A DNA stretch of 64,000 bases from the NCBI GenBank assembly GCA_963769935.1, contig CAVYNY010000016.1, forward strand, positions 224,001 through 288,000, read 5' to 3'. The notes beneath the pieces were generated by a model that saw only the letters and a list, made by a program, of their open reading frames with translations, ran no database searches and was not told where the DNA came from. The first letter of the stretch is position 1, and every line of letters begins with the position of its first letter. Below are positions 14,242-59,180 of this stretch, piece by piece. Made by a program: the position numbers and the translations under genes. Origin of the DNA: an uncultured delta proteobacterium (GTDB taxonomy: Bacteria > Desulfobacterota > Desulfobacteria > Desulfobacterales > JAFDCJ01).

Positions 14242-14772
14242 ATGCTCAAACTTCGAATTTTAATTTTAGGCCTGGCAACGTTGATGCTGCAGGTATCCTG
14301 CGCGGTAATCTCGCCACAGCTAAGAAAAGACGCCGCACCGCCGGTGCCTTTCAAAACGCTGCTGGCCGAAGCCGACCGATACAAGGGGCGCATCGTTATT
14401 CTGGCGGGCTATATTCTGGAGACCAGGAACCTGGAATCTGAGACGATCATTAGGGTCCTGCAGGTTCCCTTCAGATCAGGGGAGGAACCGGACTCGAAGG
14501 ACCGGTCGCAGGGAAGGTTTAAAATTTATCACGAAGGTTTTCTGGACCCGGAGGTGTACGCCAAAGACCGGGCCATCACAGTGGCCGGCGAGGTGATCGG
14601 CACCGAATATGAGGAAATCGGCACCGACCGGATTCAATATTTAAAATTAATAGACCGCGAAATCTACCTGTGGCCGGAATATGAAACCCGACCGCGCCCC
14701 TACCCTCTCTGGCCGTATCCCTACTACCGTTACCAGTATCCCTATTATCCATACCCTTACTGGGACTGGTAA
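14242..14772 (+). CDS. Slp-family outer-membrane lipoprotein
   Basis: Lipobox VSC; GRF..GFLDPEVY..R.ITVAG; Tyr/Pro-rich tail. Confidence 0.85.
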   Translation: MLKLRILILGLATLMLQVSCAVISPQLRKDAAPPVPFKTLLAEADRYKGRIVILAGYILETRNLESETIIRVLQVPFRSGEEPDSKDRSQGRFKIYHEGFLDPEVYAKDRAITVAGEVIGTEYEEIGTDRIQYLKLIDREIYLWPEYETRPRPYPLWPYPYYRYQYPYYPYPYWDW

Positions 14773-14889
14773 TTTTCGTTACATCCTGGGATTGATAGCG
14801 GCTGGAAGACTGGGAAGCATGGAGACTGCAAGCTGCTTTAAAGTCTTCTTGGTAGATTCTTTGCATTTTATGCAATCCGCCTTGGGCGG

Positions 14890-15011
14890 ATCACCACGAA
14901 AACACGAAATTTTGAAAGCACGAAATTTATCTAATCATCTTTTCGTGTTTCCGTCCTTTCGTGCTTTTGTGATTAATTTGTCCTTTTTAGTTCCGGCTTG
15001 TCCGGGTTAGG
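14890..15011 (+). repeat. Palindromic CACGAAA/TTTCGTG element plus TTCCGGCTTGTCCGGGTTAGG tail (copy 1)
   Basis: Inverted arms; near-identical copy at 17611-17768. Confidence 0.85.
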
Positions 15012-15057
15012 AACTTCAACTTCAAGGCTTCCCGGCCTTCCAGCCACTGATCCCAAT

Positions 15058-15552
15058 TCAATCTACCTTAAAGAATACCTTGGCCTTGGCCTTGCACACC
15101 GGGCACTCGTCGGGCGGTTCATTTTCGCAGGTGTAGCCGCAAACGCCGCAGACATAGTAATCGACTTCCTCCGGACTTGCCAGACTATCCAGCGCCTTCT
15201 GGTAGAGCGCGGCATGGATCTTCTCCACCTCATTGGCATAGGTAAAGCTGCGTTCGGCAGCTTTATCTTCCTCTTTTTTGGCTGTTTCGATCATCGGCGG
15301 ATACATGCTTTCAAATTCGTAGGTTTCGCCGCCGATCGCCTCTTTGAGGTTGTCGGCCGTGCTGCCGACTCCTTTAAGGGCTCTGAGATGGGTATGGGCG
15401 TGAACGGTCTCGGCTTCTGCCGCCGCGCGGAAAAGTTTGGCCACCTGGGCGTAGCCTTCCCGGTCCGCTTTCTGGGCAAAAGCAAGATACTTTCGGTTGG
15501 CCTGGGATTCGCCGGCAAATGCTTCCTTCAAATTTTGTTCAGACTTACTCAT
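15058..15552 (-). CDS. rbr: Rubrerythrin
   Basis: AFAGESQA, EAETVHA, EVEKIH and C-terminal CGVC..CPVC; AGGAGG before ATG 15552. Confidence 0.93.
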   Translation of the reverse strand: MSKSEQNLKEAFAGESQANRKYLAFAQKADREGYAQVAKLFRAAAEAETVHAHTHLRALKGVGSTADNLKEAIGGETYEFESMYPPMIETAKKEEDKAAERSFTYANEVEKIHAALYQKALDSLASPEEVDYYVCGVCGYTCENEPPDECPVCKAKAKVFFKVD

Positions 15553-15765
15553 TAATTTCCTCCTTTTGTTATCAAAAAAATTATTTTGGACCTCTTCCAG
15601 TGGGAACTGCGAAGTTCTCATTGTCACAATTCTCAAAATAGACTCATGGGCTTCCAGTCCTCAAACCTATAAAAAATCTGCCGCCGCATCATCTGAAAAA
15701 TACAAAATAGCGCGGTTTTTAGTTAAAAAGTCTGCCATGATATCAACGCTGGAGAAAACATAATA

Positions 15766-15781
15766 AACAATTTCCATGCCA
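15766..15781 (-). promoter_or_regulatory. Possible sigma54 promoter for rubrerythrin
   Basis: Minus strand TGGCAT-N5-TTGTT; the -12 GC is imperfect. Confidence 0.3.
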
Positions 15782-16248
15782 GGATAATAATCATCGAAAA
15801 AATTGAATATAATCATATAATTTCAAAAGGTTAACTAATTTTAGGCTACAAGACCTTTGAGATTGATGGAAACGATTCTGAATGATATTTGAGACATTTT
15901 TCAGCAAGGCAGCTGGCGGAACCGATTAAGAAACCTGGCTGGTTGGACCTATTACCGATTGGGAAATGTTTCAATAAAAATTCGAATCAATAGTGTCTCA
16001 CTGAACAATACCATGGAAAGAAAGTAATTCCGGTCCAACAGCTTGAATTTATAAAACTAATTTATCACTTTACTGATTAGTAAAAGACCTGTCAAGATTT
16101 TAATTGAAATGGACAACCATCTGATCTGGCTGGGATAGCCCTAATCCTTGACAATATCCACATAATCGTGATTAATTCAAATCCGCATACGCCGGCAGAA
16201 ACTGACCCATCCGAACCCATAGCCGGCAACCTGAAATGCGGAAACCAT

Positions 16249-16290
16249 AACCCGAAACGCGCAACCCGTAACGCGCAACACGCAACACGA
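16249..16290 (+). repeat. 7-mer tandem arm (AACVCGH)x6 abutting the thiolase RBS
   Basis: aacccga aacgcgc aacccgt aacgcgc aacacgc aacacga; same family as 48420-48456. Confidence 0.75.
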
Positions 16291-16304
16291 AAAAGGAGTT
16301 TCTG

Positions 16305-17555
16305 ATGAACGACGTAGTAATTGCTTCAGCCTGTAGAACCGCCATCGGATCCTTTGGCGGGACCCTGCGCAGCAGTCATGCCGCCACCATCGCCAGTGTG
16401 ACCATGAAAGCAGCCGTCCACAGAGCCGGTATCGATCCGTCGATTATAGATGATGTCCGCTACGGGTGCTGTATGGAGCCGGTCGACACCCTAAACGTAA
16501 CCCGCATTGCGGCCCTGCTGGCCGGAATTCCGGATGCGGTGACCGCGGTCACCATCAACCGGGTCTGTATTTCCGGCATGGAAGCGGTGATCTCCGGCAT
16601 GGCTATGATCCAGGCCGGCATGGCCGACGTAATTCTGGCCGGCGGAGTGGAACATATGTCCGGGGTGCCCTATTCCGTGGCCGCCGCCAGATGGGGCTGT
16701 CGCCTCCAGGACCATGAATTTGTCGATAACATTATCCGAGGACTGCATTGCGGATCGCATGTCATCCCGCACCCCGAAGACGGACCGGTGGACGCTGAGA
16801 AACCACCGTTGAGCTATTTTAAGGGCAAACCCTATATCATGGGACATACTGCCGAGTTCATTGCCCAGCACCTTGATATCAGTCGGGAAGAAATGGACGA
16901 AGTCGCTTTAAGGAGCCATAACAACGTCGAAAGGGCGACCAGCGACGGGTCCTTTGCCGAAGAAATCGTACCGCTGGAAATTCCACAAAGAAAAGGGGAT
17001 CCGATCATTTTTGACAAGGATGAACACTTCAGGCCGGGCCTGACACTCGAAAAACTGCAGTCATTGCCGCCGGCCTTCGTGCCGAAGATCGGCAAAGTAA
17101 CGGCCGGCAACTCCAGCGGCATCAATGACGGATCAGCCGCGCTGGTAATCATGTCCGCCGCCAGAGCCAAGGAATTAAACATCCGGCCCCTGGCCCGGAT
17201 CATAGCCGTGGGCAGAGGCGCCTGCCATCCATCCGTGATGGGCTTATCCCCGGTTCCGGCAGTTAAGCAGTTGTTGACCAAAAGCGGTTTGAAACTGGAA
17301 GATTTCGAACTGATCGAAGTCAATGAAGCCTTTGCGGCCCAGTACCTGGGCTGTGAAAAAGAGCTGGGGTTGAACAGGGAAATCACCAATGTCAATGGGT
17401 CCGGCATCGGACTCGGGCATCCGGTGGGTGCCACCGGCGCCCGGCTCATCGTCACCCTCATCCACGCCATGCAAAAAAGAGGCAACACGCTGGGTCTGGC
17501 GACGCTGTGCGGCGGTGGTGGGGTATCGATGGCGACTGCTGTGGAAATGATCTGA
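16305..17555 (+). CDS. Acetyl-CoA C-acyltransferase (thiolase)
   Basis: INRVCISG, NEAF, GHPVGATG and LCGGGG motifs. Confidence 0.95.
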   Translation: MNDVVIASACRTAIGSFGGTLRSSHAATIASVTMKAAVHRAGIDPSIIDDVRYGCCMEPVDTLNVTRIAALLAGIPDAVTAVTINRVCISGMEAVISGMAMIQAGMADVILAGGVEHMSGVPYSVAAARWGCRLQDHEFVDNIIRGLHCGSHVIPHPEDGPVDAEKPPLSYFKGKPYIMGHTAEFIAQHLDISREEMDEVALRSHNNVERATSDGSFAEEIVPLEIPQRKGDPIIFDKDEHFRPGLTLEKLQSLPPAFVPKIGKVTAGNSSGINDGSAALVIMSAARAKELNIRPLARIIAVGRGACHPSVMGLSPVPAVKQLLTKSGLKLEDFELIEVNEAFAAQYLGCEKELGLNREITNVNGSGIGLGHPVGATGARLIVTLIHAMQKRGNTLGLATLCGGGGVSMATAVEMI

Positions 17556-17610
17556 TCAGTCGCGTAGAATCTTAATTGCTATTTCTTTGCAGTTTATGAA
17601 AAAATTTTTT

Positions 17611-17768
17611 ATCACGAAAACACGAAATATAGAAAGCACGAAAATTATCTTTTATTACTTTCGTGTTTTCGCCTGCCCCGTTAAACTTTTTTTTCTCCGT
17701 TTAACCGGGGTCCTTTCGTGCTTTCGTGATTAATTTGTTCTTTCTGGCCTTGGCTTGTCCAGGTTAGG
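17611..17768 (+). repeat. Palindromic CACGAAA element (copy 2) with a nested 39-bp hairpin insertion at 17672-17710
   Basis: Aligns with 14890-15011 apart from the inserted CCTGCCCCGTTAAAC...GTTTAACCGGGG and scattered substitutions. Confidence 0.85.
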
Positions 17769-17777
17769 AGGTTGCAG

Positions 17778-18524
17778 ATGAAAAAAGCGCTATTTTGCTG
17801 CCTGTGTTTATCATTAGTGATTCTCTTTCCATTCTGTTTGCTTGCCGCCGATTATCTCGTGGAAGCCGACAAGCTGTTTAACCAGGGGGGACTCGATAAT
17901 TTCAAGCAGGCCGTCGAGCTCTATCAAAAAGCGCTGGCCGAAAATCCCGGCAGCTATGAAGCCAACTGGAAATGCGCCCGGGCTCACCGTGAATACGGCA
18001 ATGCCGCCAAGATCCAAAAAATGGAGGGTTGGAAGGACATCTGCGCCAAATACGGCAAGGAAGGTATGCAATACGCTCAGCAGGCGATCGCGATCGAACC
18101 TGAAAAACCGGATGGATACTATTACTACGGGCTCAATGTGGGCATCTACTCCGATGGGGTAAGTATCTTTACGGCCCTGTCGGAAGGTTTGAAAGACAAA
18201 ACCCAAAAAAGTTTTGAAAAAACATATGCTATCGACAAAATGTACAAAGAAGGCGGCCCGATGATTGCGCTTGGGCGCTTCTGGCAAGTGCTTCCCTGGC
18301 CCATGTACGACCGCAAGAAGTCCTTGCAATATTACCGGGAATATCAGGCCACCAAATATTTCGCAGACAACATCGAGATGCACGTCTATCTCGGCGAGTT
18401 GTTGATCCAGATGGGCGGCGATAAAAATAAGGCTGAAGCCAAAGGTTACCTGGAAAAGGCCGCCCATTCGGACGATCCATATTTTAGAGACCGGGCTTTG
18501 GAGCTACTATCCAAAATTAAGTAA
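17778..18524 (+). CDS. Exported TPR-repeat protein
   Basis: Signal peptide, TPR-like helices, AGGAGG RBS. Confidence 0.75.
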   Translation: MKKALFCCLCLSLVILFPFCLLAADYLVEADKLFNQGGLDNFKQAVELYQKALAENPGSYEANWKCARAHREYGNAAKIQKMEGWKDICAKYGKEGMQYAQQAIAIEPEKPDGYYYYGLNVGIYSDGVSIFTALSEGLKDKTQKSFEKTYAIDKMYKEGGPMIALGRFWQVLPWPMYDRKKSLQYYREYQATKYFADNIEMHVYLGELLIQMGGDKNKAEAKGYLEKAAHSDDPYFRDRALELLSKIK

Positions 18525-18577
18525 CTTTCGACGGGGAGTTCGTTAATAATATTTTTATGAATTTTCCCAAAAAACCC

Positions 18578-18756
18578 AAAAAACAAGCACCAAATTCCAA
18601 ATAAATTCGAAATTCCAATTACCGAAACGAGTAACGATATACTTTGAGCGTTTTTGATCAGCTTAGGTTATATATTCAATATCAAGTCTTTGTTTTGAAT
18701 TTGCTTTTTTGGTCATTGGGTATTGTTTGTAATTTGAGATTTGTTATTTGTTTTTT
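18578..18756. repeat. Imperfect palindromic element with 7-mer arms (CAAATTC / GAATTTG-like)
   Basis: C/A-rich left arm and complementary G/T-rich right arm. Confidence 0.65.
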
Positions 18757-18816
18757 CCAATCACGCGGAAATTTGGCAAAAAATACCTTTAGCAAAGACC
18801 AGTCTGAGGTTATGCC

Positions 18817-20508
18817 ATGTCCGACCCTTATGCACTAAAGCCCTGGCTGAAGCACTACGATGATCACGTCCCCGAAAGTCTGATTTACCCCTCAAAGACC
18901 TACATCGAAGTGGTCCGCGAGACAACCTCTCTCATCCCCACCAGAGCGGCGGTCTACTATATGGGACGAGCCATCACTTTCCATGAACTGGATATTTTTT
19001 CCAATCGGTTGGCTCACTTTCTCATAAACAGCGGACTGAAGCCCGGGGACACGGTCGGGGTCAATCTGCCCAATATTCCGGCTTATTACATCTCCATTCT
19101 TGCCATCCAGAAGGCCGGATGCGTGCTGACCGGTGTCAGCCCCCTTCTGCAACCCCAGGAACTCGAATACCAGCTCAATGATTCAGGCGCCAAACTGCTG
19201 GTGACCCTTGATGCATTATTCGACAAGGTGGCCGCAGTAGTCGACCGAACCGGGGTAAAGACCCTGGCGGTGGCATCGATTGCCGATTTTCTCTCTCCGC
19301 TCAAACGAGGTCTGGGCAAACTGCTGAAAAAGATCCCCGGCGGCAAAATCAAACCCGTGAGCGGAATTAATTGTGCGCGGTTTTCCGATGTTTTGCGCCA
19401 GATGTCTTCCGACAGGGTCGAGGAAAAATTGGACCCGGCCGCCGCCTGTTTAATGCAGTATACCGGCGGCACCACCGGACCACCCAAAGGAGCGGTGTTA
19501 ACCCACCAAAATATTGTATCCCAGCTTTATCAGGTGAGCACCTGGTTGGACCTCCAGGCCGGCGCAGCATCCACCCTGATCTCGGCCTTTCCTCTATTTC
19601 ACCAGGCCGGTCTTTTTCTGGGCATGACCGCGTTTGCCATCGGCGCCGGCCAGGTAGCGGTTCCCAACCCCCGGGATCTGGATTTCCTGATTGCAGCGCT
19701 GAAAACCTACCAACCGAGCGGTGTTGTCAATGTGCCTACCATCTACCTGCAGCTGTTGAAAAAACCTAAGTTCTGCGCCCTTGATTTTTCGGGTGTTGCG
19801 TGGTTTGTCAGCGGGGCGGCCCCCTTTCCGCCGGAATACATCAAGGAGTTTGAAGAAGTCGTGGGAAAAAACAAGCTGGTAGAGGTGCTGGGCATGACCG
19901 AAACCAGTCCCGTGCACATGAGCCTGCCCCGCTACGGCCAAAAGAAACCGGGGTCCGTCGGCCTGCCTTTCCCGGATACGGAGGTCAGGCTGATCGATCC
20001 GGAAACCGGAGTAGTTGTGCCTGTGGGCGAACCCGGCGAACTGATCGTCAAAGGCCCCCAGGTGTTTACCGCCGGCTACCACAATAAACCCGAAGAGACG
20101 GCCAACACCTTAAAGGATGGCTGGATCTACACCGGCGATATTTGCCGCATGGACGAAGACGGTTATTTTTATGTAGTGGACCGGGTAAAGGATATGGTGA
20201 TTGTCTCGGGCTACAAGGTTTTCACCCGCACCGTAGATGATGCTTTGATGGAACACCCTGACGTTGATGTCGCGGCCACCATTGGATTGCCGGACCCGCA
20301 CCGGCCCGGGTCGGAAATCGTCGCCACGGCCATCGTACTGAAGCCCGGGGTCGAAAAGAGCGATGCGATGAAAGAAGAAATAATCCGCTATATGCGGAAA
20401 AAAACCGCTCCTTACAAGGTTCCCAAAAGAATCGAGTTCATGGATGAACTGCCGCTGAGTTCTGTGGGCAAGGTGTTGAAAAGAGAATTGCGCGAGATAA
20501 TGAGCTGA
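18817..20508 (+). CDS. Long-chain-fatty-acid--CoA ligase
   Basis: YTGGTTGPPKG, GMTET, TGDI, DRVKD and GKVLKR motifs. Confidence 0.93.
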   Translation: MSDPYALKPWLKHYDDHVPESLIYPSKTYIEVVRETTSLIPTRAAVYYMGRAITFHELDIFSNRLAHFLINSGLKPGDTVGVNLPNIPAYYISILAIQKAGCVLTGVSPLLQPQELEYQLNDSGAKLLVTLDALFDKVAAVVDRTGVKTLAVASIADFLSPLKRGLGKLLKKIPGGKIKPVSGINCARFSDVLRQMSSDRVEEKLDPAAACLMQYTGGTTGPPKGAVLTHQNIVSQLYQVSTWLDLQAGAASTLISAFPLFHQAGLFLGMTAFAIGAGQVAVPNPRDLDFLIAALKTYQPSGVVNVPTIYLQLLKKPKFCALDFSGVAWFVSGAAPFPPEYIKEFEEVVGKNKLVEVLGMTETSPVHMSLPRYGQKKPGSVGLPFPDTEVRLIDPETGVVVPVGEPGELIVKGPQVFTAGYHNKPEETANTLKDGWIYTGDICRMDEDGYFYVVDRVKDMVIVSGYKVFTRTVDDALMEHPDVDVAATIGLPDPHRPGSEIVATAIVLKPGVEKSDAMKEEIIRYMRKKTAPYKVPKRIEFMDELPLSSVGKVLKRELREIMS

Positions 20509-39547: not shown

Positions 39548-39672
39548 CCTAACCCGGATTATCCGGAAATGACTATTGAAAATTGAATATTTTCGGAAGC
39601 ATTCCTTAAATTTTTAATATTCAATCGAAACTATTTAATTTAAATGACATCAATCCTTAAATATTCAATTTA
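39548..39672 (-). repeat. ATTGAAT-arm palindromic element plus TTCCGGATAATCCGGGTTAGG tail
   Basis: Arms resemble 51035-51160; tail resembles 14991-15011. Confidence 0.7.
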
Positions 39673-51034: not shown

Positions 51035-51160
51035 ATTGAATATTTTAAATTGAATATTGAATATTTAAGGAATTCTTTCAACTTTTATAGGGTTTCTCAA
51101 GAATGACGGAGCGAAGCGGCTTCTACAAATATTCAATTTTCAATATTCATTCTTCAATTT
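51035..51160. repeat. Palindromic element with ATTGAAT/ATTCAAT 7-mer arms
   Basis: Complementary arms between flxB and flxA; related to 39570-39672. Confidence 0.75.
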
Positions 51161-51175
51161 AATTGGGGGGTTAAC

Positions 51176-58618: not shown

Positions 58619-58796
58619 ATCAAATCTCCCACGAAAAATATTGTAAGGGTCTTTTGACAATTATTTACGGGGCATAGCACCATAAGTTGCTTAAAATCAC
58701 AAATCTCATTTGAATACAACCTCTACTCTATTCCCCCCTTCTGGTCAATCATCATTTGAATCAGCCCACACGCGCAGTAAAGGCTGAATTAAGGCG

Positions 58797-59180
58797 AGAT
58801 GAGAAGGTGAGAAGGTGGGAGGGTAAGAGGGTGAGAAGCTAAGAAAATCAGAAAAGCAGAAGGTCAGACCGTCGGAAGGTCAGAAGGTGGGAGGGTGGGA
58901 AGGTGAGAAGTTGAGAAGATCAGAAAATCAGAAAACAGAAATCAGAAGAGCAGAAAGTCAGACGGTCGGAAGGTGAGAGGGTGAGAAGGTGAGAAGCTGG
59001 GAAGTTGGGAAATCCGATTCACCTCAATCAACCTAATCAACTCAATCAACCCAATAAACTCAATCAACCCAACAAACTCAATAAACTCAATAAACTCAAT
59101 AAACTCAATAAACACAACAAACACAACAAACTTCGGCTCTCCGCAATCTGCAATCATCAATCGAAAAACTCGCAATCCGT
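58797..59180 (+). repeat. Long composite repeat: 8-mer/7-mer purine tract, AAATCCGATTCA, about twelve 9-mers (CTCAATMAA), then GCAATC-type 7-mers
   Basis: Read directly; same junction as 2178-2297. Confidence 0.9.

Follow-up and report, generated by a model that had tools for sequence, protein, structure and literature searches.

The DNA analysed here is a window of 64,000 nucleotides, taken as a whole, from an uncultured member of the Desulfobacterales (genome of 8.0 Mb in 41 contigs, 96.7% complete). A thiolase gene (16305-17555, + strand) and a gene for a TPR protein (17778-18524, + strand), given for context only, enclose a spacer in which lies a copy of a host repeat (about 17565-17769, + strand), a CACGAAA/TTTCGTG octamer palindrome with flanking modules. 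A paralogous copy of this repeat is found at 14895-15012 (+ strand). The host is a palindromic intergenic repeat of ~130-200 bp, and the arms of the two window copies are 83-85% identical. When aligned, the copies differ by one clean block of 39 bp, present at 17672-17710 (+ strand) and missing between 14953 and 14954; the block follows a G, and no base was lost or repeated at the insertion. It consists of a 4-nt tag and a bulged hairpin and ends exactly at the right junction. The 5' tag CCTG (17672-17675), unpaired in the linear hairpin, is followed by the 5' stem arm (17676-17686), whose first base, i.e. base 5 of the element, pairs with the last base. Then come a T-rich loop (17687-17698), variable in length and sequence across the family described below, and the 3' stem arm (17699-17710), in which one extra pyrimidine (17705/17706) is the conserved irregularity of the family; all four parts read on the + strand. 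Folded as DNA, the block pairs over 11 bp with a single bulged C, closes a 12-nt loop and leaves the 5' CCTG free, at an energy of -7.8 kcal/mol (z=-3.15; 1 of 200 shuffles equally good).

The first-pass annotation had described a 39-bp hairpin in one of two repeat copies, inserted after a G and without target duplication. Its sequence and coordinates were as claimed, and the aligned window copies confirm both properties of the junction. The junction G can be assigned to either side in the window pair alone, and its assignment comes from other sites: at 17/131 CYYG target contexts a base other than G stands at -1, yet the element ends in G, which makes the last base its own; an insertion in a Y1 gene, with exact empty paralogues, bears this out. 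Contigs of two public runs from two studies, the first of which may be the source sample, span both junctions of the filled form with 0 and 2 differences, so that the insert is not an assembly artefact. Rfam gave no match at the locus, the sole sub-threshold match in 14500-19000 lying elsewhere (E=0.93). Further short tandem or inverted repeat blocks in the style of the host occupy spacers of the window at 16231-16296, 18570-18770, 39568-39645 and 51035-51164. Tandem 8-/9-base arrays at 2176-2294 and 58789-59131 are like those beside four-helix-bundle genes elsewhere in the genome, and there is a likeness between hosts of this style and the octamer arrays bordering its GxxExxY and four-helix-bundle genes. 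The empty host copy has a different hairpin of 17 bp (14875-14891) at its left edge, where most copies have an A/T run; this swap recurs in several other host copies. Another host copy, on contig C32 near 192630, carries in its left arm a 28-bp insert unrelated to the tagged hairpin.

Of the 22 genus relatives, 17 yielded both flanking genes together, with spacers of 14 to 685 bp. Read by eye, none of these 17 spacers contains the host repeat of the window; they hold other repeats or another small gene. The host therefore arrived at this locus itself, either empty or already filled, and the host repeat is itself mobile. Thus, the earlier claim that a filled and an empty site coexist in the window stands insofar as the two copies differ by the insert, but the empty copy is a paralogue and not the pre-insertion allele of this locus, given the 17 relatives without the host. 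The thiolase-TPR spacer (17556-17777 in the window; orthologues L168-L186) is a repeat hot-spot with unrelated repeat families in different species. In three species it holds a small gene between G/C-run palindromes, which we take to be DUF559-like.

Dozens of copies of the host are present in the genome. Among 39 aligned copies, 8 are filled, all at the same base, and 31 are empty; a ninth, divergent filled copy lies outside the tree. The host tree was built from these 39 copies over 157 columns with the insert removed, after 8 of 47 rows had been dropped (6 mis-anchored duplicates and 2 inverted or divergent copies). A single filled clade was rejected (p-AU 6e-8), and the filled state needs 7 changes, no better than with shuffled labels. 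Since the host alignment is short and mosaic, these results demonstrate non-monophyly, by repeated gain, loss or conversion, rather than a number of insertions. The filled copies are scattered over host subfamilies, and the nearest host neighbours of several of them are empty.

The insert is a member of a family of tagged hairpins of 34-58 bp, in which a 4-nt tag (CCTG, CTTG, TTTA or TTCA) precedes a bulged stem. A relaxed pattern found 22 matches in this genome, one of them probably spurious. When their flanks were compared with empty sites across the genome, as the first-pass annotation had proposed, 17 of the 22 had exact empty paralogues, in six contexts, among them a sister hairpin and the opposite arm of the host itself. 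The strict pattern occurs in 13/22 genus relatives, in 30/151 genomes of the order (0 with a reversed-pattern control) and in at least 122 GTDB stretches. Among the matches listed (80 titles), most belong to Desulfobacterales or Desulfobacteraceae, and Cloacimonadota, Planctomycetota, Bacteroidales and Neomarinimicrobiota are represented too. Seven viral stretches match the family pattern, and besides unrelated hosts, a phage and a transposase gene also carry the element.

The target consensus is YYYG|Y, in at least 93 distinct contexts. In 93 non-redundant contexts, the base at -1 is G in 80, that at -2 is T in 64 and that at +1 is T or C in 82. Among 148 sites, target duplications of 3, 4 and 5 bp were found 0, 2 and 0 times, and a 2-bp duplication, seen at 31/148, is not general. 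Elements of the family also insert into one another (9/174), and head-to-tail arrays occur. The view of the insert as a very small mobile unit that targets other repeats has thus held up, with copies in many contexts and no target duplication. Neither of the two outcomes that the first-pass annotation named as refuting it, a lack of copies in different contexts or a majority of filled repeats, was observed. We conclude that the 39-bp block is almost certainly a mobile mini-element. Hairpins lie 12 times in C-rich and 6 times in G-rich context (19 versus 11 for empty hosts); a replication-strand bias is therefore uninformative, the skew being weak and the empty hosts leaning the same way.

Other observations concern the surroundings of the family. 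A Mu-like phage record (G172; L226, L227) carries four hairpin copies between genes, and inspection by eye revealed no obvious mobilising gene in it. A sister family (L216-L225, L196, L200) has the same tag and right end with a GTAG...GTAC stem of 33 bp; its insertions in phage repeats lie at CTCTG|TG, and members of the hairpin family insert into it in turn. Hairpin copies often adjoin clusters of small toxin-antitoxin-type genes (L196-L200, L215 and other GTDB loci).

The conservation of the family concerns the stem, the tag and the bases at its foot. Two stem positions left unconstrained by the search covary, in 124/135 (p=1e-24) and 126/135 elements. The irregular stem position shuns a perfect pair: A.T was counted once and A.C 90 times, and other bases face T in 81 and C in 121 cases. 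When the tag was left free in a metagenome scan, CCTG (40), TTTA (33), CTTG (13) and TTCA (7) together made up 93/138, and tag bases 1 and 4 were complementary in 101/108 tags of the form Y..R. Sequences of the types CYYG and TYYA form type II DNA tetraloops, according to excerpts of PMC9975016. Element base 5 and the last base are C-G in 251 and T-A in 17 of 300 distinct elements, a set enriched for C-G by the search patterns used. The target base at -1 tracks this pair, being G in 126/163 contexts for C..G elements and A in 9/11 for T..A elements (p=4e-8, with related elements that are not independent). The rule is incomplete, because TTTA-tagged C..G elements follow G in just 12/32 contexts.

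A search for GIY-YIG genes in five hairpin-rich genomes revealed some that lie between the arms of the hairpin family. The full elements, found in relatives, are 284-298 bp long and encode an 84-residue Slx1-like GIY-YIG nuclease; their order is tag, 11-bp arm, short leader, 84 codons and second tag, and the last codons of the gene (SYLTG-stop) are written in the right arm. Pfam assigns the GIY-YIG domain to the enclosed gene, and no NCBIfam family was above the cut-off for the 84-aa protein. Its predicted fold (pLDDT 92) is nearest to UPF0213, HIGLE and Slx1, and its nearest solved relatives are UPF0213 and Slx1. The protein family is large, with 7851/7999 scored candidates at E<=1e-20, distant GIY-YIG proteins included. 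Inverted repeats of at least 11 nt enclose 19/25 close homologues and 0/16 other GIY-YIG genes; the homologues were pooled from order, phylum and genus searches, and two arms of the GTKAAA type of the window are found at only 9/25 close loci. Some full elements interrupt GxxExxY genes, as judged by eye and, for L199, confirmed by Pfam. At another locus (L457), an AAC-rich stretch, which we presume to resemble the template repeat of a diversity-generating retroelement, surrounds a GIY-YIG element of this clade.

Bases 1-15 of the insert match the left end of the full GIY-YIG element at 13/15 positions, and the right arm is common to both; the second tag is missing in the insert. This genome also contains gene-less copies with the same ends, 8 of about 100 bp and 2 of about 150 bp, the latter sharing 22-30 terminal bases with full elements. 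Sizes with shared ends thus form a series of 34-58, about 100, 154 and 284-298 bp, and a common ancestry of the mini and long-form ends is well supported. Among the long forms, which come from family searches and not from a census, 17/19 have a second tag at the end and stems without a bulge; 291/305 short forms, a set biased by the search patterns, end in a single G or A. The class of about 100 bp replaces 4 host bases (7 filled versus 14 empty of 23 rows), and the 39-bp mini removes none. That the mini and long forms share a mechanism is therefore something we only infer, the long forms being two-tagged and unbulged and the class of about 100 bp replacing bases, neither of which applies to the mini.

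The arm type of the gene-bearing elements goes along with that of the minis. Three genomes with a GTTAGA-armed gene have 9, 6 and 2 matches to GTTAGA minis versus 0, 1 and 0 to GTKAAA minis; one genome with a GTTAAA-armed gene has 23 GTKAAA mini matches, a GTKAAA-rich genome has 0 GTTAGA mini matches, and a genome with a third arm type has neither (hand-picked genomes, two-tag copies counted on both strands). A close GIY-YIG homologue is present in 4/30 hairpin-positive versus 1/121 hairpin-negative genomes of the order (p=0.006), a count that is partly circular, the query having come from a hairpin-rich genome, and in which kin are not independent. It was not found in the other 26 of the 30 hairpin-positive genomes, and searches of the window's genome recovered no intact member of the clade. 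The two intact genes found in the genus lack one arm or are flanked by arms of another type. Small GIY-YIG genes do exist in the genome of the window, but they belong to other classes with other flanking repeats and were rejected as partners, and the viral contigs searched held no close relative of this protein.

Several explanations might account for these data. According to the simplest one, nothing moves: the hairpin would be a fixed part of one host-repeat subfamily, and the empty copy in the window would be a deletion. Similarity is somewhat higher among filled hosts (82%) than between filled and empty ones (76%, duplicates still included), as this account would have it, but empty copies are in the majority, and the element also occurs outside this host, in unrelated ones, in a phage and within a transposase gene. 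This explanation is highly improbable, and we regard it as refuted by the rejection of filled-clade monophyly together with the exact empty paralogues in six contexts. It is also unlikely, though less so, that new sites are rare accidents and that the hairpin spreads mostly by homing-like conversion, in which a nuclease cuts empty hosts and repair then uses a filled paralogue as the template for the hairpin. The scattered filled copies do share one position and near-identical inserts, and in several host families, copies filled at one base turn up in more than one genome. However, at least 93 target contexts with one consensus, the self-insertions and the head-to-tail arrays call for a de novo insertion route, and the filled copies with empty nearest neighbours show no co-converted flanks, as far as the short alignment reveals.

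The other explanations differ in the enzyme. The first-pass annotation favoured HUH (Y1/RAYT-type) chemistry, i.e. a REP-like substrate moved in trans by a Y1/RAYT or IS200/IS605-type transposase, with bases 2-5 as a guide and the bulge marking the strand. The anatomy is that of HUH substrates, with a 5' tetranucleotide, an imperfect stem and no duplication (excerpts of PMC8266576 and PMC3479197); HUH chemistry alone can join strands; and the published guide rule, by which the identity of the base 5' of the cut depends on the fourth guide base, agrees with base 5 predicting -1. Y1 genes are available too, with 11 in this genome and some in 5/5 hairpin-rich genomes. Nevertheless, the +1 base does not follow element base 4 as guiding of the IS200/IS605 kind would have it (C 21 and T 10 of 32 for TTTA tags), and both the GTAG tag and the CT cut site are absent. 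The cognate transposase flanked by the hairpin, which the first-pass annotation had suggested looking for, did not appear: a hairpin lies within 1.5 kb of 0/11 scored Y1 genes here and near 1/30 Y1 loci of the five hairpin-rich genomes. Conversely, a Pfam scan of the 143 ORFs nearest to hairpins (80 of at least 122 GTDB loci) found no Y1, IS110, GIY-YIG or GxxExxY domain among what were housekeeping genes and about a dozen toxin-antitoxin-type genes. The Y1 class tested (that of L005) does not co-occur with the hairpins (11/30 versus 27/121 genomes, p=0.16, counted by hand from tables) and is their target, not their partner: in this genome, four copies carry a 40-bp TTTA-tagged sister at one point, which is unoccupied in four others and taken by a CCTG-tagged element in another genome. 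With the same ends enclosing a GIY-YIG gene, we consider a Y1 mover rather unlikely. Distinctly unlikely, in our opinion, is movement by yet another protein or by an RNA step, as left open for the cyanobacterial SDRs, with the GIY-YIG elements sharing an ancestor with the hairpin or having borrowed it. The GIY-YIG clade is missing from most hairpin-positive genomes, one-tag and two-tag forms insert differently, and the 6 C.A versus 0 T.G pairs at one stem position, albeit small numbers, would suit folding of the opposite strand. Against this, no other recurrent neighbour gene was found: clustering of 1121 ORFs near hairpins gave no transposase-like cluster, twenty regions of four hairpin-rich genomes having also been inspected by eye. 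GxxExxY does not co-occur (20/30 versus 66/121, p=0.30, hand counts from tables), the arm variants track the GIY-YIG element, and Rfam has no match.

Regarding the Y1 genes themselves, TTTA- or CCTG-tagged hairpins lie in Y1/RAYT-like genes at C10:2566-2606, C18:65165-65205, C18:72958-72997 and C31:4013-4052 and at L115, and the filled genes look fragmentary. In another genome (G059:C457), a hairpin abuts a match to the same Y1 class at another position.

The family was not found described in the full-text literature searched, a scope that leaves most subscription papers outside. Among known systems, its anatomy resembles that of REP/RAYT and its candidate protein partner that of Ssn/NTS. Elhai et al. 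(2008) are said to have given a size of 21-27 nt for the cyanobacterial SDRs, a further set of structured repeats to which the hairpins may be compared. In the available text of PMC5861425, PMC4390886 and PMC3116915, the SDRs of Nostoc are very small structured repeats, SDR5 inserts between bases 3 and 4 of HIP1, and no SDR enzyme is named. The likeness, by description only, lies in the precise insertion at a fixed base of another repeat, and the phylum differs. With REP, BIME, REPIN-RAYT and IS200/IS605 sequences, as covered by excerpts of PMC8266576, PMC3479197, PMC3116915 and PMC3733652, the hairpins share the 5' tetranucleotide, the imperfect stem with a conserved irregularity, intergenic dispersal, occasional insertion inside other palindromes and, in part, an element-directed base at the cut. 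In contrast to REPs, the tag is CYYG/TYYA and not GTAG or CGTC, and the element is a single hairpin with exact ends and no linked Y1 gene (no REPtron); 'CCTG' does not occur in the available text of PMC3733652 and PMC12306157.

The Ssn system was described by Chenal et al. in 2025 (PMC11893778, excerpts). There, SsnA (cd10448), associated with NTS/SRM hairpin repeats, cuts single-stranded DNA just 5' of a hairpin, and the authors suggested an origin from a mobile element. Common to both systems is a single-domain GIY-YIG gene of ~90 aa tied to a short hairpin repeat family, a tie seen here in relatives and not in this genome. The SRM consensus has no match on either strand of 17601-17780 in the window. 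The gene lies inside one pair of arms here, whereas in Ssn it lies between whole hairpins, and the predicted fold here is nearest to UPF0213/Slx1. Moreover, filled sites have exact empty counterparts here and insertion follows a target rule, and the excerpts of PMC11893778 hold no demonstration of transposition for Ssn. As in MITEs, a gene-less short version keeps the ends of a gene-bearing element (PMC3184786, excerpts), but the example of that paper, at 130-170 bp, is three to five times the size of the minis, which differ from classical MITEs by the lack of target duplication, the exact empty sites and a partner gene that is not a known transposase.

Taken together, we lean towards the reading that the mini is copied to new sites in trans by the GIY-YIG nuclease of the related 285-bp elements. 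In such a mechanism, the element would fold as single-stranded DNA and its ends would be joined, the tag capping the stem as a type II tetraloop (CYYG/TYYA) to give a closed dumbbell. Head-to-tail junctions of ends do occur in genomes; in the circular form the standard energy model, which has no term for such loops, leaves the tetraloop unclosed. The nuclease, acting in trans and perhaps supplied transiently, might release or copy the mini, possibly as this closed dumbbell, by cutting at the foot of the hairpin and at the target YYYG|Y, usually in another repeat, on its pyrimidine-rich strand. The target base at -1 would then pair with element base 5 in place of the element's last base, which would explain the target preference encoded in the element. 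GIY-YIG enzymes are known as hydrolases; joining would therefore need host functions or an activity of another kind, and the joints may be sealed by host ligase or repair. Where copies of one host are filled at an identical base, homing-like conversion may have contributed to the spread. A bolder reading, which we hold only tentatively, is that these elements form a class of mobile DNA whose sole encoded enzyme is the 84-residue Slx1-like nuclease and whose smallest passengers, of 34-58 bases, move as closed single-stranded dumbbells capped by a tetraloop of the CCTG/TTTA type, each choosing its insertion base through pairing with its own fifth base.

The present family, with its exact ends, its target consensus, its base-swap rule and an 84-aa candidate enzyme, makes the question of how repeats of less than 60 bp move accessible to tests with oligonucleotides. 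If the nuclease is indeed the mover of the minis, GIY-YIG would join the short list of chemistries that drive bacterial DNA mobility, and this would be an undescribed way for DNA to jump. If the dumbbell and the role of base 5 are as proposed, the minis would be among the smallest targeted mobile elements known, and type II DNA tetraloops would gain a biological job. Such a system might also offer a very small, possibly retargetable insertion tool.
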